In this document: piece after piece, positions 26,726-57,400 of the stretch
Layout of the letters: each line of letters starts with the position of its first letter
Numbering within the stretch: position 1 is the stretch's first letter
Source: a virus
Lineage: Duplodnaviria; Caudoviricetes
IMG/VR virus record: IMGVR_UViG_2799112723_000003
Coordinates: 1,425-65,424 of that record
Direction: 5' to 3' (one strand)
Length of the DNA: 64,000 nt
Translations under genes and position numbers: made by a program
The notes under the pieces: model-generated
Told to the model about the DNA's origin: nothing
The model's database searches: none
Seen by the model: only the letters and a program-made list of their open reading frames with translations

Positions 26726-28543
26726 TTATGCGTTGCCGGTGTACTGCTTCCACTCGTTGTCATCTTCGCTCCACTGCCAAACCTTGTCGCCATCCAGCAC
26801 AGTGCCGGTGTACTCGGTCCAGGCGTTGTTGGTGAAGATGTAGTACTTGCCCTGCTCGTAGGTGACTGCCTCCTGACCTTCGCCGACGGTGATGTCCTCG
26901 GTTGGTGCAATGAGGTCACCGGCACTCGGATTTTCGGGCAGTGTGCTCACCTTCTCTACGGGACCGTCCTCACTCAGCAGACCGTCGAAGCTGATCAGCA
27001 TGCCGTCGGTAGGATTGCTGGGCAGTGCGTCTACCAGGTTCACAGGATTGCTGTTGTCTGACATGTTCTTCTCTACAATCTCGTCGCTTGGGCCTACCAG
27101 CACGCTGGTATGTCCGCCCAGCTTCAGGGCACCGCTCTCGATGTAGATGAAGCGGCTGGCCTCACGGGCTTCATTGCCGGCTTTCTTCAGGTCAATCTCG
27201 TAGGTCTTGGAGTTGCCGTTGATGTTGTGGTAGTACTTGGCCTTCTGCGTGGGGATAACCACCATGAAGTTTGAGTAGCCAAGGTCATCCAGGGCTGGAG
27301 CGTGTACAATGTGCAGCGTACCGAAGTTGCTTACCAGGTCGCGGACAATGATGCCGTAGTCGGTCTTGTGGTGCTTATACTCTACGGTGTGGTGCAGAAT
27401 TTCGGGCATGTTGTCCAGCTCGGCAATCTTGTTCATACCGCAATAGGCGTAGGCTTCTTTCGACTTGCCCAGTCCGGTGCCGATCACCTTGCCGATGGCT
27501 GAAATGTACTCCCACTTGAACTTGCCGTCCAGACCTAGCGTATTGGTCAGCTGGCGCAAAGCACCCTGCATGGTGTAGACAAACTCTTCGTTTCCGTCTT
27601 TCATGCGCATGATAAAGCGGCTCTGGGCCATAATCCACAGGCTGTACTCCTGCTTCTTCTTGAAGTTGCGAAGGGCCTGTGCCTTGATGTCGGTAAGTCC
27701 CCAGCTGGTCTTCTTGATAACTTCTCGCTCATGGTCGGTAATAAGGATATTGAACTCCATCTTCTGCAGATAGACGGTGTTCGGACGGGGCTGACTGTTG
27801 TCGGGCTGTACAATCATCTGGCTCTCGCTGGCTGCAACAGAGGTAATCACCATCTTGGTGCCTGCAGGAATGGCCGGGGCTGTGTACTCTCGCAGATAGT
27901 CGCTCTTCGTACCTTCGGTCTTGGTAATACCATTAATAGGACGGCAGGTAATCTTCTCTTCGTCGTTGGCTACTACAAACAGTACCAGCGGACCACCGTC
28001 TTTCTTGGTTTGGCTTCCATTCTCATAACCGCCTACTCCTGTTACTACAATGGTACTTGATACTCCCAGCATGTCCAGGTTACCGCTACAGTTGCTCTCT
28101 GTCAGTATGACTTTCTCACCGGCTGCAATATCGTCGGTAACTACAAGCGTCATGTCTTCCTCACCAATGCGGAAGTCGGTAATCTCGTAGTCATGGCCAC
28201 CGACGTTGCGCTGCATGGCAATGGTCTGGGCGTGGTTCAGCAGTACATAGTCATCGGCTTCAAACTCCACAATGTCGGGGTCGTACTGGTCTTCTACCAG
28301 CTTGGCACGGCGCAACTGGGTGGCTGATGCCTGCGTACCTGGCAGTGACTGACCGGCTCCTTTGCCGTCAGGACTCTTCATATCATTGGTATCAGGATTC
28401 ACCGGGTCAGGATTGGCCGGGTCTGGCTCAACCACTGCTGCATCGGCAAGGCACAGTCCTGTACCGCCTGTCAAAATAGCCATCATCAAAAGACACAAAC
28501 TGACAAATAGCCGTCGTGTAAAATTAAATTTGTTCTGTTTCAT
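26726..28543 (-). CDS. Major capsid protein with hydrophobic N-terminal leader and C-terminal extension
   Basis: Follows the scaffold gene; NTVYLQKME, ALRNFKKKQEYSLW, TMQGALRQ, FGTLHIVHAPALD segments fit an HK97-type capsid; leader residues 12-33 are hydrophobic. Confidence 0.75.
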   Translation of the reverse strand: MKQNKFNFTRRLFVSLCLLMMAILTGGTGLCLADAAVVEPDPANPDPVNPDTNDMKSPDGKGAGQSLPGTQASATQLRRAKLVEDQYDPDIVEFEADDYVLLNHAQTIAMQRNVGGHDYEITDFRIGEEDMTLVVTDDIAAGEKVILTESNCSGNLDMLGVSSTIVVTGVGGYENGSQTKKDGGPLVLFVVANDEEKITCRPINGITKTEGTKSDYLREYTAPAIPAGTKMVITSVAASESQMIVQPDNSQPRPNTVYLQKMEFNILITDHEREVIKKTSWGLTDIKAQALRNFKKKQEYSLWIMAQSRFIMRMKDGNEEFVYTMQGALRQLTNTLGLDGKFKWEYISAIGKVIGTGLGKSKEAYAYCGMNKIAELDNMPEILHHTVEYKHHKTDYGIIVRDLVSNFGTLHIVHAPALDDLGYSNFMVVIPTQKAKYYHNINGNSKTYEIDLKKAGNEAREASRFIYIESGALKLGGHTSVLVGPSDEIVEKNMSDNSNPVNLVDALPSNPTDGMLISFDGLLSEDGPVEKVSTLPENPSAGDLIAPTEDITVGEGQEAVTYEQGKYYIFTNNAWTEYTGTVLDGDKVWQWSEDDNEWKQYTGNA

Positions 28544-28576
28544 ACATTAATTGTTTTAAATGGGTTAATATTTTGT

Positions 28577-28741
28577 TTACCTTTTAGTCAGCCCACCGCG
28601 TCGTATCTGGGTTCCTGATGCCTGTGTACCTCTTAGTGACTGGCCTGCTCCGCGTCCGTCCGGACTGCGCATGTTGTTCACCGTGGGGTCTACGGGGTCT
28701 CTCTTCCTGGGACTGGGGTCTATGACGGGACTGTCTTTCAT
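28577..28741 (-). CDS. 54-aa mini-protein duplicating the capsid N-arm (not in ORF track)
   Basis: MKDSPVIDPSPRKRDPVDPTVNNMRSPDGRGAGQSLRGTQASGTQIRRGGLTKR*; 26/37 identities to capsid residues 46-82; ATG overlaps the scaffold TGA. Confidence 0.85.
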   Translation of the reverse strand: MKDSPVIDPSPRKRDPVDPTVNNMRSPDGRGAGQSLRGTQASGTQIRRGGLTKR

Positions 28742-29538
28742 ACGCCGTCCTCTCCCCAGTCGGCAAAACCGCCGCGTTTCTTGGGCTGGCGCTCACCGCG
28801 TCCTACGCCACCGCCTGACAGGCTGGGCACACCGCTGCCAAAGTTTCTCAGACCGTTCTGCATTCGCTCGTTCATGGCGGTAGCACGGGCTTTGTCGGCG
28901 GCTGATGCAATATCGCTGTCGTAGTTCTGGGCCTTCAGCACGGCTTCCCATACTTCCTTGGGCACAATTCCCATGGCGGCATTGCCGATGATGCCAGGGT
29001 CTGTCTGCTCGCCGTTCTCGTCGGTCTCGCCAAACAGTTTCTTCACCAGGGCTATCGCGTCTTCGTTGCTCAGGTTCTTCTCCTGCTGCAACTGCTTCAG
29101 GGCGTCAAAGCTCTGCTGCATGTTGGTACCGATCTCTTCCTTGCGCTTGGCGTCTGCGGCCAGACTCTCTTGGAACTTGCCCAGGGCGTCGCCCATCTGC
29201 TTGCCGAAGTCGGGGTTGTTGGCCAGCTCTCTGATGTCCATGTCGGGGCCGATGTTCTCTGCCAGATAGACAAAGGGGTTCTCACCTTCCTTGGCGGCAA
29301 GTACCAGCCCACCTAACAGCGGGGTCTTGTCCATGGCTTCGCCTAACTGACGGTTGCTCTCGCGGAAGTTCTCCAGCTCGTCCAGATTGCTGTTGGCTTG
29401 CTCGTAGAAAGCGTCTTCGTCATCCAGATTCATGTCGGGATGTGCGGCCTGGTAGCGGCTGCGATAACGCTCACGGGCTGTGGGCTGTTGACCTTCTGCT
29501 GCTTCCTGACCTTCTTTCTTTTTCGTATTCTCTGCCAT
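28738..29538 (-). CDS. Capsid scaffold-like protein
   Basis: Acidic and helical, basic C-terminus; upstream of the capsid gene; start MAENTKK. Confidence 0.65.
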   Translation of the reverse strand: MAENTKKKEGQEAAEGQQPTARERYRSRYQAAHPDMNLDDEDAFYEQANSNLDELENFRESNRQLGEAMDKTPLLGGLVLAAKEGENPFVYLAENIGPDMDIRELANNPDFGKQMGDALGKFQESLAADAKRKEEIGTNMQQSFDALKQLQQEKNLSNEDAIALVKKLFGETDENGEQTDPGIIGNAAMGIVPKEVWEAVLKAQNYDSDIASAADKARATAMNERMQNGLRNFGSGVPSLSGGGVGRGERQPKKRGGFADWGEDGV

Positions 29539-29567
29539 AAATTTGCGTGATTTAAAAATTTCCGCTG

Positions 29568-29679
29568 TAAAATTATAAATCATTCTTCCTGCTTTATTCA
29601 TAAAATTTCCCTTCATCAGACAGAAAGCACGCAGAGGAAAATTTTATGAAGAAACGTGCTTGCCTGCTTCCTAACTTTG
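29568..29679. promoter_or_regulatory. Divergent late promoters sharing an AAATTTTATGAA motif
   Basis: Plus: GGAAAATTTTATGAA (29636-29650)-N21-TAACTTTG. Minus: GGAAATTTTATGAA (29610-29597)-N21-TAATTTTA. Confidence 0.7.
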
Positions 29680-29696
29680 TAGGCAAAAAGAAGTAT

Positions 29697-31730
29697 ATGA
29701 CTAAGCCGTTATTGACTCTGAAGGATGTCACGCCACTGGCCAAAGACAATAGGTTTGACTCTGTAAAGAAACGACGTACCAACAACATACAGGATGCTGT
29801 CTACGACACTGACCTGCTGGGAGAGTGTGAGCGTTCATGGAACGGAAAGGATGCCATACGTCAGGAACGTGCCAGGGTGTTGCGTTATATCTTCGGCAAT
29901 CAGTGGGGCGATCAGGTGCCGGTGGATGGCTATGGTCTTATGTCTGAGGAAAAGCTCATCAGAATGCAGGGCAATACGCCGCTTCGCAACAATGTCATGC
30001 ACTCGCTATGGATGAGCGTCTACGGCATTCACGCCAAGACGGAAACGGAACCTGTATGCTATGCGCGTCATCAGAATGCCAAGGAGCTGTCGGACAATCT
30101 GTCTGCGGCCATACAGACCAACTGGCAGAACACCTACCAGTCGGAAAAGCTCGACAATGCCTTTGCAGAGTTCCTGGTGTCTTCACAGGCTTTCGCACGC
30201 GAAACCATGGAAGAGCGTCACGAACTGCTGGACTCCTATACGGACTTCCCCAATCCTTATTATGCGTTCTGGGAGGGCGGCAACGATGCCACGCATCAGG
30301 ACTTGCGTCTCATAGGTCTCCTGCATGACATCAGCCGCGAGGAACTGTACTTCCGCTTTGCCAAGCCGGAATATGGGCTGACCATCCAGAAGCTGGACGA
30401 AATCTACCACTTCAACGATGGCAACATACTGCACTATGCGGTAGCACAGCAGCCTCACAACGAGGTCAACGACTACCTCAACGTGTCTTTCTACAATCCG
30501 TCTGACCCTAGCCTGGTACGTGTCATTGAGGTGTGGCGCGAAGAGGTGAAGCCGCGTTATCAGTGCAAAGACCCGCTGGCGGCTAACCAGCTCGACCACA
30601 TGTTCCGATGTGAAAAGGAGGACTTGCCAAAGCTCCTGGAGATTAACCAGGAACGTAAGGCCATGTACGAGGCGCAGGGGGTTCCTCCTGAAGACAGGGC
30701 GTACATTACGGCTACGGAGATAGTCGACAAGTACTGGCAGTACTACTTCCTGGCTCCTGACGGACGGGTGCTCTGCGAGGGCGAAAGTCCCTACGACCAT
30801 AAGGAGCATCCCTTCACGGTGGCGCTGTTCCCGTACATCAATGGGGAGATTCATTCTTTCATGGGTATGTTCATCGACCAGCAGCGCTACATCAACCGCA
30901 CGGTCATGATGGGCGACATGGCCATGAAGAATGCGGCAAAGGGTATGACCTTCCTGCCGCTCAGCATGAAGCCGGACGATATGACCATCGATGAATATGC
31001 CAACCAGAAGACGCGATTCGACTCGGTGTTTGTCTATGACGACATGAAGCCGGAGGCGCTGAAGTCTCAGCGTAAGCCGGAGTTCTATACGCACTCGGCA
31101 TTCAACATCGGACAGACGGAGATGCTGCAACTACAGCTTAACATGATTCATGAGGTCAGCGGCGTTTCGGGGGCTTTGCAGGGTAAGACTCCGCAGTCTG
31201 GTACAAGCTATGCTCGCTATGCGCTGGAGTCGGAGAATGCCACTACGTCCATCTATCCGCTCATCAAGACCTTTAACGGTTTTGAAGAGCGTGTGGCCAT
31301 GAAGAAACTCATTACCATGCAGCAGTACTACGAGGACGGGCGTGACATCACTCCGCGCAAGTCGGAACAGCAGATCTTCTACAAGGCCAATGCCTGCCGC
31401 AACATCAAGAGCAATGTCAGCATCAAGAACTCTGCGGCATCGGCGGCGTTCCTGCAACTGGGCAACGAGATGCTGGACCGACTGCTACAACTGCAGGCCA
31501 TCGACGTACGGACATATCTGAAGAACTACGACAGTCCGTACTCGGAGAAACTGCTGCAGGACTACGACAACTACATGAACCAGCTGCAACAGGGCCAGCA
31601 ACCTGCCATGCCGCCACAGATTCCGGGGGCCGACCAGCAACAGGCGGCTGTCGCCTCTCAGCTCATGCAGGGTGGTGGTCAGCTCTTCACTCGTCAGAAA
31701 CCGGGCGCACCTCTCACGCCTGCCGCATAA
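29697..31730 (+). CDS. Portal protein (P22/podovirus-like)
   Basis: YIFGNQW..PLRNNVM..DQQRYINR..EVSGVSGALQG motifs; Gln-rich tail. Confidence 0.8.
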   Translation: MTKPLLTLKDVTPLAKDNRFDSVKKRRTNNIQDAVYDTDLLGECERSWNGKDAIRQERARVLRYIFGNQWGDQVPVDGYGLMSEEKLIRMQGNTPLRNNVMHSLWMSVYGIHAKTETEPVCYARHQNAKELSDNLSAAIQTNWQNTYQSEKLDNAFAEFLVSSQAFARETMEERHELLDSYTDFPNPYYAFWEGGNDATHQDLRLIGLLHDISREELYFRFAKPEYGLTIQKLDEIYHFNDGNILHYAVAQQPHNEVNDYLNVSFYNPSDPSLVRVIEVWREEVKPRYQCKDPLAANQLDHMFRCEKEDLPKLLEINQERKAMYEAQGVPPEDRAYITATEIVDKYWQYYFLAPDGRVLCEGESPYDHKEHPFTVALFPYINGEIHSFMGMFIDQQRYINRTVMMGDMAMKNAAKGMTFLPLSMKPDDMTIDEYANQKTRFDSVFVYDDMKPEALKSQRKPEFYTHSAFNIGQTEMLQLQLNMIHEVSGVSGALQGKTPQSGTSYARYALESENATTSIYPLIKTFNGFEERVAMKKLITMQQYYEDGRDITPRKSEQQIFYKANACRNIKSNVSIKNSAASAAFLQLGNEMLDRLLQLQAIDVRTYLKNYDSPYSEKLLQDYDNYMNQLQQGQQPAMPPQIPGADQQQAAVASQLMQGGGQLFTRQKPGAPLTPAA

Positions 31731-31753: not shown

Positions 31754-32215
31754 ATGAACATCACACTGACATCTGCCGACATAGCCGCAACGGTCAAGCG
31801 CTCGCTTTCCATCATTGGCAAGCGTGCCAGGGACGACAACGGCAACCTCTTGTTCCAGGACATCAGCATTGGTTCCAGGGAAGAGGCCATCCTGGATGAC
31901 TTCTTCAGTCAGGCTGTTATCGAGCTGGCTACTGAGACTGCTGCATTTATAACGGACAGTACGGAGAGTAGCATCACACTGACTTTCCCGGAAAACCATA
32001 ACGTAAAACTCGACACCTTCATACAGAAGTCATGCGTCAACTACTGTGTGTCTTATGCGCTGTATTCATGGTTCACAATCACTGCGCCACAACTGTCAAA
32101 GAAGTACCAGGAAGACTGCAACAGCAACGTGGCAAGCATCATCAGGCTCATCAACGACAAGAAGGCTCCTGAAAGTACGCTCGACATACTATCCACATCG
32201 ACAAGTATAACATAA
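31754..32215 (+). CDS. Neck/ring protein paralogue 1
   Basis: Downstream of portal; CVNYCVSYALYSWF motif shared with the next genes. Confidence 0.55.
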   Translation: MNITLTSADIAATVKRSLSIIGKRARDDNGNLLFQDISIGSREEAILDDFFSQAVIELATETAAFITDSTESSITLTFPENHNVKLDTFIQKSCVNYCVSYALYSWFTITAPQLSKKYQEDCNSNVASIIRLINDKKAPESTLDILSTSTSIT

Positions 32216-32226
32216 ATATTAAGTAT

Positions 32227-32757
32227 ATGGCAAAGACTATCACGCTTAATCTCCAGAAAGACCTCATCTTGGAGGCTGTCAAGGCTGAAACCTACGACAC
32301 AGGACGTATCGTCAAGTCGAACGACCCTGTAAAAAATGCATCTACCGTTCTTGTTGAACAGGCAGGAGGTGAACAACATCAGGAGAGACAGATGCTTAGG
32401 TCGCTCAAACAGGCCGTCGGCGCTTTTGAAGCTAAGATGGTGGAGTTCCTGGATGCCGGTAGCGGAAACATCAACAATACCTTGACTGCTAATCAGAGTG
32501 CATTTACCATTACAATGGTTGTCAGTGACCGCTACAACAATGGACTGGCTAATCCGATGTCTTCTCTTTGCGAGGATTATCTTATCAACAAGATGATGTA
32601 TTCGTGGTGGGTTTCCCGTGACCAGAAGTTTGCCAATCAGTTTGCGATAAGTGCCCAGGACTCTATTGACAACATACGGCTCTGCCTGGCTAAGTCGGCC
32701 CCTACGGCTTCTTCGTCAAACTATACGGACGTCACAGGAAACGTAACTCAATCATAA
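32227..32757 (+). CDS. Neck/ring protein paralogue 2
   Basis: DRYNNG..CEDYLINKMMYSWW. Confidence 0.55.
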   Translation: MAKTITLNLQKDLILEAVKAETYDTGRIVKSNDPVKNASTVLVEQAGGEQHQERQMLRSLKQAVGAFEAKMVEFLDAGSGNINNTLTANQSAFTITMVVSDRYNNGLANPMSSLCEDYLINKMMYSWWVSRDQKFANQFAISAQDSIDNIRLCLAKSAPTASSSNYTDVTGNVTQS

Positions 32758-32761
32758 CACT

Positions 32762-33610
32762 ATGGCAAAGGAAATCAAAATAACGCTTATACAGTCGCTC
32801 ATCGTCAACTCGGTCAAGAACGAGACTTACCGGCGGGGGCAGGTGTTCAAAGCTGCCGACGAAAAGCGGACGGCAATGGCATTCCACGACCAGGCGGGTG
32901 ATGACGCTTATCATGAGGCCATCATCGGACGGGCTATGTTCACGCAGGCTGAAATGCTCAAAACGTGGTTCTCGGAATATCTCTCCGGCTCTGGATTCCT
33001 GGCTGAAGACCCGCTCATCTCTCAGGATGAGGAAAACGGTACTATCGAGATTTCCCTGAAGGTGTCTGACCGATTCAACAATGGCTACGTCAAGACGCTG
33101 GCACGACTGGGACAGAAGTATGTCGAAGACCGTATCATCTATCTTTGGTGGGCTACTACCGACAAGGAACTGGCGGCTATCTATTCACAACTGGCAGAGG
33201 AAGACTTGGTGGGCATACGGCGCTGTTTCAGCAAGACGGCTCCAAATGCGCCTGCCTACAATTTCCCGACGGCCATCGAACTGCGCTACCCCATCATCCC
33301 GGAGCGCAATCAGACACCGGGATATATCACGCCTGGCAACAGTGCCGTCATCCAGCCTATCCAGCTCTTCAACAATCCCTGGATCATCGGACGGGGTGAA
33401 GAGTCGGAAATATCCTATACGCTGACCGGCGAAGGTGGCAAGAAACCTATCGACGACGTCATTGTACGCTGTGACGACGGATGCTGTGAGCCTTTCATGC
33501 ACGGTGGCAACTGGTGCCTGCGGGGCATCTGCAAGGGTATCACCATCGTCACACTCTTCTCACGACATAACGACCAGGTGTTTGCAAAATTCGCCATCCG
33601 CATCGTCTAA
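32762..33610 (+). CDS. Neck/ring protein paralogue 3 with C-terminal beta domain
   Basis: DRFNNG..GQKYVEDRIIYLWW..CFSKTAP. Confidence 0.55.
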   Translation: MAKEIKITLIQSLIVNSVKNETYRRGQVFKAADEKRTAMAFHDQAGDDAYHEAIIGRAMFTQAEMLKTWFSEYLSGSGFLAEDPLISQDEENGTIEISLKVSDRFNNGYVKTLARLGQKYVEDRIIYLWWATTDKELAAIYSQLAEEDLVGIRRCFSKTAPNAPAYNFPTAIELRYPIIPERNQTPGYITPGNSAVIQPIQLFNNPWIIGRGEESEISYTLTGEGGKKPIDDVIVRCDDGCCEPFMHGGNWCLRGICKGITIVTLFSRHNDQVFAKFAIRIV

Positions 33611-33645
33611 CGTCCTACATCTTACTTCTAACATCTTACATCTAC

Positions 33646-34212
33646 ATGTATCCTCATCACCTACATACTCCAGACCGTCCTTTACCAGCCACCGTTCCTG
33701 CTGGTTCTCCAGCAGGCAAACAACTGGTAGAGGTCATCCTCTTGCATGAGGAACTGACACACGACATCGAGGCTGACATACGGCGCATCGAGAAGGCACG
33801 CAAGCTGGAAGAGTCGCCCATACTGGCTGACAATGGTTCGGACGATTACTCGCTGTGTCGCCTCATCGACCAGGCTGTCAATCATGTGGTCGCTCGCTGC
33901 AGGGCTTATCTCCTGCTGCCGTCTCCATTCGTACGGCGTATCTCCACCAATCACGCCCACAACTGGGAAGAGAAGAATATCCTCCTGGCGCTGCCGCACA
34001 ACTGGGCACCGCACAACATCGACCCGCTGCGGGATGCCGTACACAACTATATCGTAAAGAATGTGGAGTACCAGCTGCTGGCACAGACGCTGCCACAGGA
34101 TGCTACGACCATGCTCTGTCAGCAACAGGCCACCGACAGCTACAACGAAATCAATGCGCTCATCAACAGCCGACTGGGTGGTGTCCGTACACACCCTACC
34201 ATCTTCGGCTAA
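33646..34212 (+). CDS. Neck/ring protein paralogue 4
   Basis: LIDQAVNHV..AVHNYIVKNVEYQLL; start uncertain. Confidence 0.5.
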   Translation: MYPHHLHTPDRPLPATVPAGSPAGKQLVEVILLHEELTHDIEADIRRIEKARKLEESPILADNGSDDYSLCRLIDQAVNHVVARCRAYLLLPSPFVRRISTNHAHNWEEKNILLALPHNWAPHNIDPLRDAVHNYIVKNVEYQLLAQTLPQDATTMLCQQQATDSYNEINALINSRLGGVRTHPTIFG

Positions 34213-45469: not shown

Positions 45470-48400
45470 TCACTGCTTACTGTCAGGCTTCTTGTTAAGC
45501 TCCAGCCTCTCAATCATAGCCTTTCTTGCTGCACGGATACCTTCCATGACGTATTTGTCACCTTTGCCGCCAAAAAGGGACACTACGTTGCTGTGGACAC
45601 TCTTACGCTGATTGCTGATGGCTTTTGCTTGCTGCTCATTACCTTCTTCGTCTAACTTTTGCTGATAAGCCAATAGCAGCGCATCCTCATAGACATCTTC
45701 GCCCGTTCGCAACTCCTGGTAAAGCCTTTGATGGTCATTCTTCGGCTTGTCGCCATAGGGAGTCTCGCTGGCTCCTGCCTCCTTGGAGATACGCAGTGCT
45801 ATTGCCTTGCGCTTCTCCGCGTCTTCGGTGGCGTCAAATTTTCCAATGGCCAGCTCCAGCGGGTCTTTGCCGCTTTCAAGGGCTGCAATCTCGTCAAGAA
45901 GGTCATTCTTATACATTGATATGCTGGACTTGATATTGGCAAGCGTGTCTTTGTCGGTGGCTTCCTTCTGCTGCTTACGCAGGTTGTCTATCAGCTTCTT
46001 GTACTGGCTGATGACAAGACTTTGCTGATACTCGTCGGATGCCATCAGCTTCTCGAGCTTCTTCTGGGCCTCAGCATCTCCAGCCTTTGCACGCTTCTTC
46101 TTCTTCCTGACGGTATTCAGGAACTCTTCGTTGTCGTTAATCATCTGCCAGTAGTCCTCACCGAGTGCCCCGCTGTTGTCGCGCTCCCACGGGCTGTTGA
46201 CAAATCTGTTCAGGACAGGTATCTGATAGGCATTGGGGGCTTCCTGCCTGGCAACTGTCACGACAACGTCAGCCGACTTGGCAATGGTGTTGTACATACC
46301 GCCCAGATAGCCTTGCAGCAGATGGTTCCACACAGCAGGGTTGTTCAGGTATTGTCCTGCGGCGGTCTTGTCCAGCCATCCGCGACTGTCCTCGTCGCCG
46401 CCTGCAGCCAAGTTGATACCTTCTGACACCTTTGTCATCCATTTGGGAGTACTGGCGTATGCCTTGGTGAACATCGGGTCGTACTTGTTACCCATATTAT
46501 CCTTCCAGATAGGCTTGCCAGTAAAATCGGTGTTGAACGCCACCTGAAGGATGGGCTGTGTGGTGGTGGGCAGGAAGTTGATGACAAGGTTGCCACCGTT
46601 ACCCGTCGGGTTGATGGGAACAAGGTCGGCCACGCTCTCGAGTATTTCCACACCCGTATTCTGATGGGGATGCTCCATGACACCACTTGAAATCATCTCA
46701 CCGACACCATAGAAGACACGGAACTCCTGCGCCAGCGGCATGGTGAAGAAATACTTGGTGCCCGGCACCCAGAATACCAGGTTGTTCTTTCGTACCCAGG
46801 GGGGCAGGTTCCAGTAGGCATCCTTGTCGTCATCGTCACCAAACATATTCAGCAGCCATTGGTTTAAAACAGGCATAAACACACCCATCAGCATGAAGCC
46901 TGCGGCCACACCGCCAAGCTTCAGCGGATGCTTTTTTGCCATACGGTACATATTGGCAAGTGCCTGGATGGCGGGGTTTACGAAGATGTATAGGTCTCTC
47001 AGCTCAGCATTACCCTTTGCTCCCGTTCCCTTACGGTTGAAGTTCAAGGTCACGTCCTTGGCATCTGCAATGGATTCTTCCAATGTCTTACCCATCTGGC
47101 GGCTGGTCATATAAACCATGAAGCGGGTGGCATCCTCTGCACATCGGTTATAGAACTCAAAGGTCTCTCCCAACAGCCTGAACGCCTTGCCGATACTGGT
47201 CTCTTTCACCTTGGCTTTGCTGCCGAATAGTGTAGAGCCGTTCATCTGGCTTATTTCCTTCTGCATCTTCTCCTTGAAGGAGTCGATGGACAGCATGTTC
47301 ACAAAACCAGTCTCGCCGCCTTCGTCCATGAACTCCTTGAACAGTCGCTCAGTCTCATTGCCCGTGTCCAGTTTCCCTTGCTGCCATTTGCGCATCAGGC
47401 TGGGTATTAACCCTGTAGGTTGCTTCGATGCAGGCATCCAACGGCTGCTTTCGCCCAACCTTGGCGTCAACACCTTTGCAATGTTCTTCAGAAACCTTGC
47501 ATTATACGCTGCATTTTCGTTGACAGCCACACTGGCCATGGCCATGTTAAGGTCTCGGCTCAGGTTGGAAATGACAAATGCCGGGTTCTTGGAGGTAAAG
47601 AATGCTGCCATGCTGCGGTTGAGCTCGGCAATCCTTTTACCCCATGTTGTGTCGCTGATACGGCTGACGGCTCTTGCTGCACTGCCGTTCAATGCTTGTG
47701 CGGCCTTGGGATTGCCGTTGATGTACAACTGATAGGTGCGTCCGGCACGCTGCACCTCTACCACATGTTCTGCCTTTTGGCCCTGGGTGGCATTGACATC
47801 TAGTCTTAGCCGGCCTCTCACAGGGATGGCCTTGCCTTCGTTCTGCTTCAGGCGCATCTCTTCGTTGAAGTCACTCACTATCTGGGCTATCTCGTCAGGG
47901 TCTTTGCCTGCTGTGTCAGCAGAACGGAGCACCCATACGGGATGATCGTCTTCTGTACCGATGTTCTCATACCACGATTCACTGATGCTCACCAGACTGG
48001 TAGGATTGTTCATCACATAGTTCAGGAAGTGCTGCTTCATCATGTTACGGTGTCCTGACAGGATGGTACTCACGGCAATATTGCCTATATAGGCCAGCGG
48101 GTCTTCGGCCTTGGAGGTTCGGCCCCAGGTCTTCTTGACGGCTGGAGAAAAGACATTCTCCCTACCCATATAGGTGTAAACGTCTGATGCCTTGTTTTCA
48201 TCCCATCCTCTCAAAGGCAGATAGAAATCAAACATCTTACGTACCTTGTTATAGGTATTACGGTCCATCAGACCACTTTCGTAACTGTGCTTCAGCGTCT
48301 CTTCGGTGGCAGCATTGATACGCTTCCAAAGTTCTGTATGATGACGTAGCACGTCATCACTCTCTGCATCAAACACGCGTTTCTCGGCTTCTTCTCTCGC

Positions 48401-51400
48401 TTGCTCATACGCCTGCTTCATCATGGCATCGTATTCACCCCACAACTCGCGGCGTTCCTGCGGGTCAATAGTCCGCTGGGCTTCCTTCTTGATCTGCTGG
48501 GCGGCATCATACATTTCCTTGTTGAAGGTCTCTGTAAGTCCGGAATAGTCCTTCAGGTATTCATCGTACTTGCCGTCGGTCTCTCTTCTGATGATGTCTT
48601 CTATACGAGTCGTATACTCGTTGTAGCTGATGTCGCCCTTGGCATAGTCTTCTTTGGCTTGCAGATAGTCATCACTGCCTCGCACCTCCTGCATGCGGTC
48701 ATCGACACCGGTCTGCTCCAGCAGGTCTATATCGGCTTTCTTGGATTTATACTCTTTCTCGTCGATACGGTTCTTGGAGTAGTCTTTCTCCAGCTTCTCC
48801 CGCATATCCTTGATGTCTTCTGCCAGCTTGGACTTGACAGCATCACGGAAAGCATAGTACACGTTACGCTCCAGGCCGCTCTTGGCTATCAGGTAGTCCA
48901 TACCTTGCTCATGCGTCAGTTCTTTTGCCTTGCAGAAGTCGTTGAACGCTTTCAGCATGGGGCGGTAATACTGCCAGTCATAGCGTTCTGCCATATTCTT
49001 GGCACGTCCGTGCATACGGTTCTCGAAACGGTAGGCATCCTCTGCACCAGTGGCGGCATTGCCCGTCTCTTTGGCTATGGCATCCTGAATGGCTTTCAGA
49101 CTGGCCATAGAGTCCTGCCATGCTTCCTGCCATTTCAAGCTGCCCTGAGCCACGGCCTTCTCATAAATCTGCCTTGCCATATCCACCGGCACTTCCTCCG
49201 GCTCACCCATGGACTGCCCACGCCTGTACTCTTCAAGACGCTCCGCAAAGTCCATGGCATTCTCGCCAGGCTGGTAGTGCGGACGCTCTGGACTGCCAGT
49301 GCGCTGGAACCTGATATCAGGATTCTCAGGATTGTAGTCACCATTATTCTCAGTGGCACTCTTTACCTGGTTAGGCTCAAAAGCAATAATGGTTTCTGTG
49401 GTTCTGCCAAGACTGCCTTCATCCCTGGCTATCCATATACCATCGTATTCGCTGTTCTTGAAATAATCGTCAACCAGCTCCTTCATTTTGGCAATAGGCT
49501 TGCTCTGAGCCTCTTTCCACTGGTCAACTACATCTTCTGCAGTATCCGATATGGCATTCTGATACTCTTCTTCGGTAATCTCTCCGGCTTTCCACTTATT
49601 CCAGTTTTCGACATCGCGCTCATGGTCAAACTTCATGGCCTCATCGAATTTCTTGGAATATTCCCGGTCTATCTTCTCATACTCTGCAAGAGCCTCCTTG
49701 TATCCTTCAACCTTTGATTGCAGCAGACGGGACAGCTCCTGTCTGTTGGCAACTCTCAAAGGCTTGCGGATATTGGCATACAGGGCCATCTGCTTCGCAC
49801 CGCCAACACCTATGTCTCGCGCTGAAGGTTTCATGAAGATACCGAAAGGCAGCTGATAGTCATTGGTTCCTGCTCCTTTGTGTCTTGGGTCAAACACGGT
49901 AAAGTCGTTGGCTGTCTGGTGATAGACCACCATCGGCTCACCTTCCCTGTCAACTATCTTGGAAGCATTATCGGGATCCTTCTCCCAGTCACCGAAGAAA
50001 TTCTTGAAGTTATCGGAGTGTGTATCACCCTCAACTTTCTGGAATTTTAATGAATTATTCTCATTTTCTTTGCCATTAATGATTACCTGGTCCTCGCGGG
50101 GCACATCCTCGGTCTTTGCGGCTGGATTGTTACGACGCTCCTGCTCGCTCATACCCATACGCTCAGTAACGTTACGGGCCTCCATCTCACCTGCAAGACT
50201 CCGATAAAGGTCACTGGCATCACTCTTGGCAACAGTCTTCAGCTTATAGATGCGGTCTATCTGAGCTGTCAGGTTGTCGTACTTGGCTGCAAGTTCATCA
50301 AGACGATTATTAAGACTTTCTTTAAAGTCCTTAACGGTACGGCCCTCCAACTCGGCATAATCTTTCAACTCGTCTCCAGAGTTAAGTATCTTCTGGTTCA
50401 TCTCGATTTCCTTCATCACGCGCTTGCGCTCGGCCTCCTTCTTATTCATGATGGCCTCCATACCTGCCTCAGTGGTAGCTGTACTCAGGCTGCCACCCTG
50501 GGCAAAACCTTCCTTTTCCTGAATGACATGCTGCACCTCATGCAGCAAGATACCATAGACATTCTCGTTATCCAGCTTCTTGTCACCAAATCGACTGGTC
50601 TCGTTGGCATTCAGCTCAATGGTCTTACCATCGGTACTGCCAGCAATGCCACTCTCAACAGTCGGGTCGAACATCACCTGTACGTTCCTCATCTGGGGAT
50701 AATACTTAAACAGCTCGTTATCCTTACCAAGAAGTTCCTGAAGCTTCAGGATGGGCATAGGGTTCTCTACACCTTCATCTTTCATCTCCTGCAGCTTCTT
50801 CTCATAAGGCGTAAGCACGTCAACATCGGCATCAACGGTTTCGTATCGCCACTTGCCGTCCTTGCCGCGCTCCCAGCCTGTAGCCAATTTGATAGCACGG
50901 ATATCCTTCCCGGCTTTCTCCATCTCTTCAGCCACCTTCATATTGTCCTGGCGCATGGTAGTACCCTCTGCCTCATCAGCCTTCTCTGCACCCTTTCTGC
51001 CTACTAGCTGGTATTTGGGTGCATCGCCCAGTGGCTTGATACCTTCATCAAAGTAGCGGTCTATGTCAGCCAGTACGCGGTTGGGCTTAGCACCATCATA
51101 TTCTACATAGTGGTCGCTGTCCCAACCATCACCAAAGTCAACCTGTACATAACCGTCATTATGTGCTATAAGTTGTCGCAAGGCTTTCTTCTGCTCGTTG
51201 GTGGGCTTCACGGAAAGATTAATAGCTCCGGCATTGTCGTCAATACGGATAGCGCCTCGACGGATAAAGTCGGGCATATCTGTCTCAATGCCTGTCTTGG
51301 TATTGCCATCTCTTTCATAAGCAATGGATTCTACCTCTCTATGGTCTGTAGAGCGTCTGCCTCTTAGGAAACTAGTGTCAGAGCCCGGATTCATCAGATG

Positions 51401-54400
51401 ACGACCAGAGAAATCTGGCATACTGCCATCAGGCAATATATATCCCGCCTCCCTGATATCGTAGGTGGTGCCAAACAACTTCTTAGCAGCATTAAAGATG
51501 GTCTCTGTGCGCTGTTTCTCTTCGTCGCTGGTATAGTCCATCTTCTGACTCTTCAAGCCATCAGAAACTTTAGCATACTGACCCTGCAACGGGTCTATCC
51601 ATGCCACATCAGTCAGGGGAACTTCCTTTGAGTATACCTTACCACCGCCTGCATAGTTTGTTGCTTCCATCTTAGAGGGTGTAACAAAGGCACCATCCTT
51701 GATAGGCTTGCTACTATACACGGTGACAACACCCTTTTCCAGCGCATCTTTCACCATGTCAGCGGTAAAGTCAGGTGTAACACCTTCCTCAGCTGCATAG
51801 CCGTCTTCGTCAACAGCCTCACGGAATGTCTTGATATCGTTGATGGTCCGAATCCAAGTATGTCCTGGCATGTTCACATCATCGGCAGGGTTCTCTTTCA
51901 AGATAATGTCAAGCTGCTGCTGTTTAAGATGTTCTGCACGATTTACCTTTGCTTTCTTAACCTCTTCAACTGGGTTCACGCCATTGAGCATATCGGCCAT
52001 GATGCGGTCTGCAATCTGGTTGGCATTGCGGTACTTCCAGCCCATCATCTTGGCCACACCTTCCCAGAACTGGTTCAGGACGTTCTTCAGACGCTGCATG
52101 GCGGTCATGGCCTCAGCCTTGCCGAAGACGCCGCCACGCTCGGCTGCAACCTCGTTGGCAATCTCACGCAGACGCTCTGCACCGCGCTTGCCTGAGAACT
52201 GGGTGATAATCTCTTCAATGAAATCATCTTCCTTCCCTTCCTGGGTAAGCTCCGGGTAGTCGCGCTTCACCTTCTCGATGATAGGCTGCACCAGCTTGTC
52301 GCCCAGCATCACCTGCTTGATGTTGTTCCACTCTTCAGGAGCTGTCTGACGTTTCATCTCAACCCAAAGGTGACTGTATTCGTGTACAGGTGTCTCAGAG
52401 GTAGCGATACGCGGGTCAATGTATATCTTGCCCTTATAAGTGTAGCCGTAGGCATGCCCGTCAGGAGTCTTGAAGAACTTTCTTTCAGAATCTTTGGCGG
52501 TTTCGGAATTTTGTTGTACCTTTGCACCCGAAGAAGCATTCAAATCATTTGTCCGTGCGCCTTCGGGCGTGTCGCCGTTTGGCATCTGCGGGGTTTGATT
52601 TGATGCTTTATCAGAGGCATTGTTAGCATCTGCTTGTGCGCTTAATTGCGTGTTCGTATGACCATTGGCTTTGTCAATGAGACGAGCGGTAGAGTCTTCT
52701 ACTGTGAGACGAGCGGCTGACGATGCTTTTCTGTTTGTATAGAAATCAACCTGCTCCGAAAGATTTTCGTCTTTCTTGACATCACTTCCCAAAATATTTC
52801 GTACCTTTGCATCTGAAAGAACTGCTCCCAGGTCTTCACGACTAAACGTAGGGTTGGCTTGCGTAGCGTCGGAGTGAGTACTAACCTCGCCGTCAGCACC
52901 AGTTTTTTCATCTTTTTTCCAACCGTTAAACAGCCAAGTTTCTTTTTCACCAAACCTTGTAAGAGCAAGCAGTGCTTCATACTCGCCGTCAGTCAGGACT
53001 ACGGTTTTGTTACCTGGCACATAGCGGTCAATCTTTCCGTCAGCAATGACGTTCAACACTCTTAGAAGCGTGTCGGCACCATGCTTGCCGCCAATATGGG
53101 CAATGCCATAGCCGCCCTTGTAATTTTCCTCAGGATTGCCAGTCTTACCATAGTAGAAAGTGATGTTGTTGTCGCCTCCATACTGGGAAAGGTCATCACG
53201 GGTCATAGCATTTGGCACACTTTCCTCTCCATCAGCAATCCTCTGAAGGGCATCCATACCGTTCTCAATGTTCTTCCTGACGGCCATCTGCTTCAGATCA
53301 TGCGAACCATTGTAATCATCCAGCACTTTCTGGCCTTCCTCCCAGTCCGTGGACACATCTATCCCGGCCTCCTTCATCTTCTCGACTACGGCATCCCTCA
53401 GCACCGTCTCACGCCTGCTTGCGGCATAAACTCTGCCACTGACTTTGTGATCGTCGGTGTTGTTGCTATTCTTTCCATTGTCCAGCCTCGTCTTAGCCTG
53501 CTCTTCAGTGTTTTGCAATTCAGATTGAGTTCCCTCGCCCAATCTGCCGTTTTCATCGTTCTGCCCTGATATGTCACCATTCTGGAGTTGGCCTTGATCC
53601 CGTCCGGAGTTTCCAGCGTTCTCTCCACGCTCCAATGGTAAGTCAGGATTCTGGATTTTATTCTTTTCAGCGGGAGCCCCGTTTCCTCTGCCCACTGCCG
53701 CATTGACATCGTTCTGCCCTTGTATGTCAGATAATGTGCCGTCCTTCGGTTCTGAGACTGGGTTATCCAATCTGTCCACCTGCAATTCTCCTTGCAGTAG
53801 CCCTTGTTTACGTCGATTCTGTCCAGAGTCGCCTTGGGGTATGGACGCCTGCCCATATCCTCCAGAAACCTCGGGAAGCTCTCTATCCATTCCTGACAGA
53901 CGGTTATCCCCCGTCCCCCGTAGTACTTGTACCTCTTGTTGTTCGGGTTCAGGCATCTTCCCTTCATCTGCAACCATAGTTGATACTCCGGGATATATCT
54001 TAGCCCATGCTCCGTCCTCTTTATACGTCCCATTCTGTTTTCCATTTTTCAGCCAGTCTTTAAATGATTCCATATCTGTTTCTATCAGCGAATCCATGCC
54101 GTTCCATCCTTCCTCATAGTTAGAAAGATAGGCATTGGATGCCTGAGATGCATTCTCAAATCCCAGAAGCACTTTCAGCTCGTCAAATTTCCAGACTCCA
54201 TTGACTTTTTTCCGTTGCTGTACTATAAAAACCTTGTCCGGATGAGTGGGATCGTCTGACAGGAACACATCTATATGGTCCTTGTCGGCTCCCTCCGTAC
54301 CCCTGATATACCCGTAGGTATTGTGCATTTCGGTTTCCCATGGCTTGCCACTAGCATCAGTACCGCGACGGATACTGCCCTTCGGATTCTCGATAGTAAT

Positions 54401-57400
54401 GTCAAGACCGTCAATCTTGATATGTCCTTTCTGATAGTTGCCTGCTTCCTTCTGACCCTCGCTGGGATTGGTATCTACCTGTGCTTCCTCGGAAGAAATT
54501 TCTTCGGCTGATGAAGTTTTTCCAAGATTTTCTTGGTTATTTGAAATATTTTCCGTACCTTTGCTTTCGAAAGAAGCGTTATTCTCTTGCGTAGGAAGGA
54601 GGTCCGGCACAGCATCTTGCTGTTCAGCTAAGTGCCCGTCAGAGCTGTTGGAGAGTAGCGCTTGTTTCGTGTATATACTTTCCAACGTTGTTAATCTCTC
54701 CAGCACTTTTGCAGGTTTCATTATATGGCTGCTTACAGATACCTCCATGTTGTCACGCTGAACGGTAACAGAAGCATAGTATTTCATCTTCTGTCCGTCT
54801 CTGACAAATGTCTTGACAAACACATAAGAGTATGGACGTTCCGTTACCTGGCCTTCCTTAGCCTGACTTGGTTCTACCAGAACAATGTCGGGGTCTTGTA
54901 ACGTTTGTACGGCCATGCCAAACTCAGCAGAACGATTCTTATCAAAGAATTTCTTATACTGGCCATCGCCCATCTTAACAACACCTAATGGCGTGTCAAG
55001 AGAGTTGTTGAGTCCAAACGTATTAGCCCAAGTTTCAGGCGTCAAGCTAATTTGTGGGTCTTCAACTGCTGCATCTTCCATCCTCTTCATAAACGCCTGA
55101 GCTTCGTCGTTAGAAAGTGCTTTTGCCCTGGCATTAGCCTCAGCAACACCAATCTCAGGCGACTCCACACGTACAGCATCACGCATATCTGTCGGCTTCA
55201 GCTGCTCGGACTGCTTGATGCCGGTCTTGATGTACTCAGGGTCTACGTCATTATCCAGGTATCTGTCCCAGAAGGTACGGATGATATACTGGTCTGCCAG
55301 CTTTTCAGGGTCGTTACCGTTGTAGTCCTCGGCAATATCAAACATTTCCGTCTTGTCTTCACCTGCGTCCAGTCCTTCATCTACATACTGCTGAACGGCC
55401 TGCGCTGCGGCTGTGATGGTTGCAGGGTCGCCACTCTTGTAGGCATCAATCAATGCCTGACGGTTGGCTTCATAACGAGGTTTGTCAATCTTTGGCGTAG
55501 GTATGGCACCCTCAAAGGGTTCTTCACTCTCTATACCATACTTGACATTCAGACCCTCGACATACTCCTCGATGGGCACAAAGACGGCGTTAGCCTGTTC
55601 CTGTGCATCGTCAATGGCTTTCTGTGCCGCTTCACGGGTTTCCTTGTTCTTACTCTTCAGGGCATCTTTGTTCCTCTCGATGACCTGGCCGTATTCATCG
55701 TTGGCGATTTCCCAGTCTTCTACCAATGCTGTCAGCTGTTCCACGTCATAGTCGCTCATGCGCTCGGCAAGTACCGGGCTGGCACCAATCTGGTCAAAGA
55801 GTATGGCTAAGGATTCTCTGTCGCGTACTGTTCCAGATACATCGTCATCAGAAACAGTCGGTTGATTAGACGCTGCTTCTTCTCCTTGGGCCAGCCCTTC
55901 CTCAATATTTCTGCCACCTTCGGCTTCAGCTGCTGTTTGTACTTGGCTCTGGCTTCCTTCAATGCCTGCTGGTACTGCTCCACTGACAGGCTCTTCACCC
56001 ACTGCTGGGCTTGTTCGATTCTGTTCATTGTCTGCTATAATTTGATTGATTACTTCCTGCTCAACGAGTGTGGGAGGCTCCTGCATGTAGGCTTCAAAGG
56101 CCTCACGCTCTTCCGGGGTCAGGTGATAGGCTTCTGCCCATGCGTCCATTTCTGTCTCTTCTGCACGACGCTGGTTTTCTTCCTTCATCTGGCGGGCTTC
56201 CTCGATACGGTGCTCTTCTGTCAGATGGAGCATACGTGTGCTGCTGCCCTCATTGAACAAATCCAACAGGGTATTGCGCACGTCTTCGTCCGTGTACATA
56301 TCCTTCATGCCCTGGGGAAGTCCTTCGTGTATGTCGAGTACTACCTGGCCAAAAGGCTTGGCACCGCTTTCCTTGGTTCCTAACAGGGTCATCATACGCT
56401 GCATGTCGCTGCGCTTCAGGCCCAGCTCGGTCTGCAAACCTCGTTCGCTGTCGCTGGCATCTTGCCAGAGCATAGAGTGAGGACGTAGGAGTGAAGACAC
56501 ATATTCGTCCAGACTACGTGGCTCAATATCTTCCAGGACTGACAGGGCTTCTGCATCGTCGGCCATCTCCCTACGTGCCTGCACTAAGGGATCGTATTGT
56601 TTGTTACGGCGTTCCTTATCCTTTTCTATCTGCTCACGGAGTCGTTTGCGGTCTTGCTCTTCCTGCTGCTCTTTCAGCTTACGGGCTTCCTCGGCTTCAC
56701 GCTGACGCTGCTCTTCGCTCTTGGCGGCTTCAATAGCGGCCTGGCGTTCTGCGGCTTCGGCCTGCATCCTGCGCTGTATGTACTGGTTGACGTCCTGCCA
56801 TTGCTTGATGATAGCCTGTTGTTCTTGTTCCTGCTGCTTGATGGCCTGGCGACTCTCGGCAATCTCTATCGGGTCTTCACCCTTGGGCTTCTGCTTACGA
56901 ATCTTCTCCAGCTTACCACGGGCAACATTCACCAGATCGCTGGCTGTGTCTCGGGCTGTCAGCATGTCACCGCCAGCGGTTTCTATCAGTGCTGAGGCTG
57001 CATCTTCCACGGTGGCCTTGTGCCATTCCAACACTGGTTTGCCATTCTTGCCCTTCACCGGCTGGCCACTGGCATCTGTCTTGACAGGAATACGTGACAA
57101 AGCGGAGGCAGGCTGCTCGTTTGCTCCAGTACCGCTTTCGGCACTTGCCTCGCCACCTGCTGTTTCTCCGCCTTGCTCTGGTTGAGGTTGTGGTTGTATC
57201 TGGTTGTTCTTGGTCGGAACTGATTCTGTTCTCATTTGTTCCAACTGCTGATTTTCAATGGTTTCCGTGTCAGGCTGCATTGATGCACGCTGCACCTCCA
57301 TACCATTATGGGCCACAATACGACGGTTCATGTCGTCGGCTGTCATCTGGAGTGCCCTGCCGTCATTGGTCTGTATCACAAACACACCGTCTACGGCATT

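Follow-up and report, generated by a model that had tools for sequence, protein, structure and literature searches.

Genes and features at the head locus

We analyzed a 64,000-nucleotide stretch of a tailed-phage genome (hereafter, the window) that comes from a 65.4-kb IMG/VR provirus with relatives in Prevotella genomes. Three genes of its head region lie on the minus strand: one for a putative scaffolding protein (28738..29616), a 54-aa mini-gene running from an ATG to a TAA at 28579..28577 (28577..28741), and one for the 605-aa major capsid protein (26726..28543), which begins after an A/T-rich spacer of 33 nt (28544..28576). The portal gene (P22_portal, 29646..31730) is on the plus strand, divergent from the scaffold, mini-gene and capsid genes. 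A preliminary description of this DNA had noticed that the apparent gap between scaffold and capsid encodes a short peptide, and the list of open reading frames (ORFs) gives exactly the translation it quoted. The plus strand reads tcat at 28738-28741, which places the mini-gene ATG over the TGA of the 292-aa scaffold ORF and bears out the ATGA overlap proposed there. Elsewhere on the plus strand, four genes follow the portal (31754-34212; 153, 176, 282 and 188 aa), all matching phrog_19255, a family of unknown function, and forming a tandem paralogue array in the head-gene region. A single 4870-aa ORF occupies 45470-60082 on the minus strand; giant virion proteins of about this size are typical of some podophage groups.

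The capsid ORF matches the Pfam family SU10_MCP (PF17236) at 35.3 bits, above the cut-off of 24.1 (E 1.2e-8). Its AlphaFold2 (AF2) model has a mean pLDDT of 78, and the top Foldseek matches are the capsids of VP1, phicrAss001, HK97 and SU10 at probability 1.00, in keeping with an HK97 fold. The first 33 residues (28445..28543, minus strand) resemble a Sec signal: a basic N-terminus leads into a hydrophobic helix, and the end is small-x-small. The model places a leader helix at residues 6-24, disorder at 26-39, and the N-arm motif described below as coil plus a short helix (74-79) at pLDDT 55-76, a prediction that suggests a short linear motif folding on binding.

A leader of this type is present in nearly every full-length capsid, down to about 30% identity, among the 120 listed homologues and in loci L001-L072; in most relatives it ends in A-x-A, after which comes an acidic linker rich in Asp and Pro. 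Judged from its sequence by the positive-inside rule, the leader has a predicted secretory topology, a very strange one for an HK97-fold capsid protein of the cytoplasm; it may serve as an assembly element that is cleaved off or as a membrane tether. We found no description of such a capsid leader in the literature.

The upstream gene is assigned as a putative scaffold from its position, a helical low-pTM model and a conserved C-terminal tail. The portal-to-capsid interval holds this gene, in the same order, in all related loci. Its only named match is to phrog_22323, also of unknown function; the sequence has no match in Pfam or, at E < 0.05, among PDB sequences. Translation probably begins at M27 (29538) for a product of 266 aa, as all relatives begin at the equivalent residue (M-A-E/T..); the first 26 codons of the listed ORF (29539-29616, minus strand) are probably untranslated. 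AF2 predicts a mostly helical protein of long helices (pTM 0.32) with disordered ends that include residues 233-266, a shape that would suit a scaffold. The last 15 residues (28741..28785, minus strand), also predicted to be disordered, form a tail in which a basic patch precedes an aromatic and acidic hook. Searches for the prohead protease families S78, S77, ClpP and S49 in Pfam were negative, the S77 search being blank in its control genomes as well and hence uninformative. With these protease families not found, assembly is probably scaffold-dependent.

The mini-gene copies the capsid N-arm

BLASTP against the 605-aa capsid ORF aligns residues 1-53 of the peptide with capsid residues 32-84 (28292..28450, minus strand), with 30/53 identities, no gaps and an E value of 2e-20. 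The earlier figure of 26/37 identities over capsid residues 46-82 is right by direct count on this alignment. Across the 53 shared codons, only 0.56 of nucleotides are identical, and the proportion of synonymous differences is 0.76 compared to 0.33 for non-synonymous differences. With DNA identity this low and synonymous differences this high, the likeness lies at the protein level, as had been suggested. The peptide begins where the hydrophobic capsid leader ends (..CLA|DAAVV) and has no counterpart of the leader, again as first described. It is also more basic than the capsid copy, with a net charge of +6 against -4 for the capsid segment. The most conserved part, residues 27-51 (28589..28663, minus strand), carries the motif P-x-G..AGQ-L-G-TQ-S-TQ-RRG-L that it shares with the capsid N-arm.

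A profile search of the six-frame translation found no further copies of the peptide in the window, matching only the peptide and the capsid. We rejected the idea that the motif is a general head-targeting signal, since the other window proteins do not carry it. We also rejected the mini-gene as an HK97-fold capsid paralogue of the kind represented by T4 gp24 or Ccm: it is only 54 aa long, and homology ends before the fold begins.

An intact gene under purifying selection

The survey covered 38 non-redundant loci related to that of the window, drawn from IMG/VR, from JGI metagenomes and from public assemblies. The duplicated segment upstream of the capsid gene is present as an intact ORF, in the same place, in all 20 loci of one type (type A) and all 10 of another (type B, described below). 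Type A is the form found in the window's clade, where an ORF of 53-65 aa is intact at 20/20 surveyed loci with capsid identity down to about 51%; direct reading showed the mini-genes of L013 and L062 to be intact. Stops or frameshifts in relatives, or a dN/dS near 1, had been named as outcomes that would count against a gene. The 30 related loci are free of both stops and frameshifts, with dN/dS well under 1. Between type A clade members synonymous sites are saturated (pS 0.6-0.85, with pN 0.14-0.36), and the less diverged, unsaturated pairs within a subclade give an omega of 0.05-0.35. This range, together with invariant residues that coincide with the motif residues of the capsid, led us to reject a regulatory upstream ORF or leader peptide of free sequence.

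The setting of the ORF varies among loci. Most type A loci have the ATGA overlap with the scaffold stop; overall, the mini-gene lies in frame 0, +1 or +2 relative to the scaffold gene, at a spacing of -4 to +60 nt, and every surveyed mini-gene locus has its own ATG. At the nucleotide level, peptide genes group with other peptide genes and not with their own capsid genes, to which their identity is 0.52-0.60. The similarity thus goes back to an old duplication and is not the product of recent gene conversion. Taken together, the sequence data lead us to regard the ORF as a genuine, separately translated late gene. It very probably arose by duplication of the 5' end of the capsid gene past the leader, followed by purifying selection that kept all near-invariant motif residues while the flanking residues changed from acidic to basic.

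Gene callers have predicted the protein in many assemblies, in some of them as an identical, unnamed 54-aa product, and RefSeq holds one relative, a hypothetical protein of Prevotella sp. E13-17 (WP_237807809.1). In the complete genome of that strain (CP091787.1, 1578236-1586394), the head genes of a related prophage come in the same order, with the portal followed by a 283-aa scaffold, the 52-aa mini-gene product (WP_237807809.1) and a 547-aa capsid. An 887-aa MutS-like protein and 583-584-aa DnaG primase-like proteins fell into peptide clusters at 90% identity (those of P0124 and P0121); these are unrelated, a clustering artefact, and no fusion to the peptide is involved.

Conserved motif and inverted charge

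Columns invariant across the 20 type A peptides are the proline steps D-P-x-P and D-P-V-x-P, a P-x-G, and the core AGQ-L-G-TQ-S-TQ-RRG-L. In the capsid N-arm the corresponding columns vary little or not at all; there, G64, Q65, L67, Q71, S73 and T75 show no variation among 31 diverse capsids and almost none among 89. The charge is reversed: type A peptides have a mean net charge of +4.5 (+1 to +7), compared to -7.5 (-12 to -3) for the aligned capsid segments, and this inversion is systematic across the clade. Matched peptide and capsid pairs are 0.560 alike versus 0.535 when permuted, with 1 in 10,000 permutations reaching as high a value. Since the excess corresponds to roughly a single residue and shared ancestry confounds it, we give it no weight as evidence of co-evolution.

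A chimeric peptide in the sister clade

A sister clade, whose capsids are about 44% identical to that of the window, carries a different gene of 52-53 aa in the same gap (type B), intact in 10/10 loci, with an omega of 0.07-0.23. It lies, for example, at 2263-2421 on the plus strand of L006, with equivalents in L019, L020, L045, L048, L049, L056, L059, L064 and L066. Residues 1-30 match residues 51-80 of the same phage's capsid, which hold the N-arm motif (E 3e-8), and residues 38-50 align with the scaffold tail of that phage (E 3e-4), copying a lysine patch and an FF-D/E-DWE hook. Apart from the lysine patch these peptides are acidic, with a net charge of -1 to -3. On this sequence evidence, type B reads as a chimera of segments from both neighboring genes. 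A tandem duplication running from the 3' end of the scaffold gene through the 5' end of the capsid gene would predict the order of motif followed by tail, and we infer this origin for type B. The type A peptide of the window showed no similarity to the scaffold tail.

Gains and losses of the mini-gene

We placed the peptides on a capsid tree built with IQ-TREE. Type B loci form one clade (support 100/100) whose sister, L008, does not have the gene. Type A loci also form one clade (95/94), and their neighbors L017 and L021 and the outgroups L061 and L052-55 do not have it either. Nested within the type A clade, L015 and L039 have clean gaps of 47 nt and 67 nt in place of the gene. Lineages without the ORF in general have a plain scaffold-capsid gap of 33-67 nt. 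The gene is thus not essential to this capsid architecture, as its absence from L015, L039, L008, L017, L021 and the outgroups indicates. In the capsids of L015 and L039 (P0047-P0061 type), the Asp/Pro linker is longer and in part repeated, which could be a change compensating for loss of the mini-gene.

On this tree, parsimony gives two gains and one loss, three changes in all, versus one gain and four losses. Within the motif, type B peptides are 0.59 identical to the capsids of their own clade, 0.47 to type A peptides and 0.46 to capsids of the type A clade. Clade-specific residues follow the same division: K-[D/E]-G..LAQ is common to type B peptides and the capsids of the type B clade and L008, and R-R-G is common to type A peptides and the capsids of the type A clade. 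As parsimony, motif identities and clade-specific residues agree, types A and B are likely to have independent origins, with phage mosaicism and co-evolution as caveats. That a similar peptide apparently evolved separately in the sister clade suggests a helper of phage head assembly that has gone undescribed.

Proposed function and alternatives

By analogy with characterized heads, we tentatively propose, as the most likely role, that the mini-gene product is a mimic of the capsid N-arm that acts in head assembly, a model that as a whole we hold with slightly more doubt than confidence. The roughly 54-aa peptide would be intrinsically disordered and, in most relatives, would be made by translational coupling to the scaffold gene through the ATGA overlap. 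Within the procapsid, as this assembles, the shared motif would let it dock at capsid N-arm sites, where the N-arm meets the C-terminal tail of the scaffold. There it would serve as a competitor or an adaptor, tuning scaffold-driven assembly or the release of the scaffold. We place its role at the scaffold interface because the C-termini of the 80alpha scaffold bind the capsid N-arm and CpmB exploits that contact. In the phages studied here, the type B chimera would physically tie the N-arm motif to the scaffold tail, as read from its two matches. The clade-wide charge inversion, the type B chimera and the dispensability of the gene together favor the scaffold-capsid interface over simple DNA binding.

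The main rival is a resident structural or DNA-binding role, in which the peptide stays in the virion as an inner-surface cement at N-arm sites, for instance around the portal vertex, as a basic counter-ion bound to DNA beside the acidic N-arms, or as both. A basic peptide could be equally fit for binding DNA, and type A charges of +1 to +7 beside capsid segments of -3 to -12, the conserved motif, and a location in the head-gene block coupled to the scaffold gene would all suit a resident protein. However, a general DNA-binding role does not fit both types, since type B is net acidic, and some lineages have lost the gene with no obvious change in the capsid N-arm; we consider a resident role unlikely. 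The ORF could instead be a translational-coupling device that passes ribosomes from scaffold to capsid and sets their ratio, with a functionless peptide as by-product. The ATGA overlap in most type A loci would serve this, as would the overlap of the mini-gene stop with the listed capsid start in L005, L011, L012, L014, L033 and L068. Yet 33-82 nt separate the ORF from the capsid start in type B loci and the window, lineages without the ORF manage with a plain gap of 33-67 nt, and purifying selection acts strongly on the amino acids, with invariant positions that are those of the capsid; this reading is very unlikely. Equally intact ORFs stand against a decaying remnant of duplication or a recombination scar without function, which a partial copy of a neighboring gene might at first resemble: 30/30 loci are intact despite saturated synonymous divergence, length is conserved, and omega is far below 1. 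Intact ORFs, selection and variable spacing together cause both the remnant and the pure coupling-ORF readings to fail, the remnant being the most improbable explanation of all.

Two further explanations concern where the peptide is used and how it is made. As a tool of inter-phage interference, it would be a decoy against the heads of related co-infecting or superinfecting phages, or a protection from such decoys. Known mimics of capsid or scaffold, CpmB and Ccm for example, serve in genetic conflict, accessory genes typically show such patchy gain and loss, and peptides show a slight excess of similarity to their own capsids (0.560 versus 0.535 permuted). The mini-gene, however, belongs to the late head operon and shows coupling to the gene for the scaffold, so that the peptide would be made together with its own capsid, and we regard interference as quite improbable. 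Alternatively, the peptide might exist only as a C-terminal extension of the scaffold, made by -1 frameshifting or stop read-through. The mini-gene frame of the window is open for 17 codons upstream of its ATG, and the L002 mini-gene is in the scaffold frame, 12 nt past the stop (an in-frame TAA). Against this, direct reading of the window found no canonical slippery heptamer in the last 17 scaffold codons, and each locus supplies its own ATG. The variation in frame (0, +1, +2) and distance (-4 to +60 nt) rules out a conserved frameshift or read-through product, and recoding in any form is highly improbable. 

Returning to the docking model, a broader reading, which we hold somewhat less likely than not, is that N-arm mimics constitute a new class of head-assembly factors with at least two origins in one phage family, one as a charge-inverted copy and one as a motif-tail chimera, acting at the scaffold-capsid interface.

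Novelty and implications

The peptide has no family match in PHROGs or Pfam, a blastn search with the scaffold-capsid region matched none of 50,697 phage records, and a scan of genome collections with the capsid alignment yielded no confirmed locus. A profile of the peptide searched against 1.84 billion representative proteins returned only 14 matches at E <= 0.001, four of them short peptides and the rest almost all capsids or capsid fragments. Since the profile matches only this phage group, there is no wider family from which to borrow a function. In databases the mini-protein is unnamed or labeled a hypothetical protein, and our literature search found no description of a free capsid N-arm peptide.

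Recognition between scaffold and capsid is central to the assembly of tailed phages and herpesviruses. The natural competitors known to act there, CpmB and Ccm, are satellite products, and to our knowledge no phage-encoded copy of the capsid side of the interface has been described. If the proposed function is correct, a phage controls how its head is assembled by copying one of the two partners that bind each other. The peptide would then serve as a natural probe for where the N-arm binds and might allow assembly of HK97-fold shells to be tuned. The mini-gene is also a clear case of a new gene formed by partial duplication of an essential neighbor, in phages that are abundant in rumen and gut Prevotella. 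The E13-17 prophage would make a test of the mini-gene in culture possible if the strain is available and the prophage inducible.

Comparison with known systems

Small proteins made alongside head genes are familiar from T4, in which the internal proteins IPI-III and the prohead-core proteins gp67 and gp68 are small, often basic and located inside proheads. None of these T4 proteins is a capsid paralogue, in which they differ from the mini-gene product. Targeting of the T4 internal proteins relies on an N-terminal signal that is cleaved and on a prohead protease, and four prohead protease families were not found here. The T4 vertex protein gp24 is, on the other hand, a paralogue of the capsid protein. 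We know of no phage of solved structure that encodes a free copy of its N-arm. SaPIbov5 Ccm is described as a capsid-protein homologue that acts in head assembly (PMC8569155). Like the mini-gene, gp24 and Ccm are derived from or homologous to the major capsid gene and have a role in head assembly; unlike it, they are full HK97-fold lattice proteins, whereas the peptide is a 53-residue copy of the arm with no fold domain.

The interaction that the peptide is proposed to mimic or modulate is that between scaffold and coat. In phages of the P22 type, a basic scaffold C-terminus is reported to contact the capsid N-arm inside the procapsid (PMC9965877, PMC12005531). The scaffold studied here shows no sequence similarity to Pfam scaffold families or to solved structures. 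In 80alpha, a C-terminal helix-and-hook of the scaffold binds the helix of the capsid N-arm, and CpmB of the satellite SaPI1 carries the scaffold's C-terminal motif, binds the capsid in the same way and is proposed to outcompete the scaffold (PMC5644958).

Among these systems, SaPI1 CpmB is, as an analogy, the closest. It too is small (residues modeled up to 72) and shares a binding module with a core head-assembly protein at the interface of capsid N-arm and scaffold tail; the type B peptides resemble it further in copying the C-terminal tail of their own scaffold. CpmB differs in being satellite-encoded, in copying only the scaffold tail, in having an N-terminal dimerization domain and in redirecting capsid size. 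In all 30 loci the mini-gene lies inside the phage's own head operon, and none is a satellite gene of the CpmB kind. The window peptide departs from CpmB in its phage origin, in copying the N-arm of the capsid and in lacking the scaffold tail; as type A has no copy of that tail, the analogy is strict only for type B. What the peptide has in common with CpmB is that it is a mimic of a head-assembly binding module, and what is new is that the side copied is that of the capsid and that the copy is carried by the phage itself.
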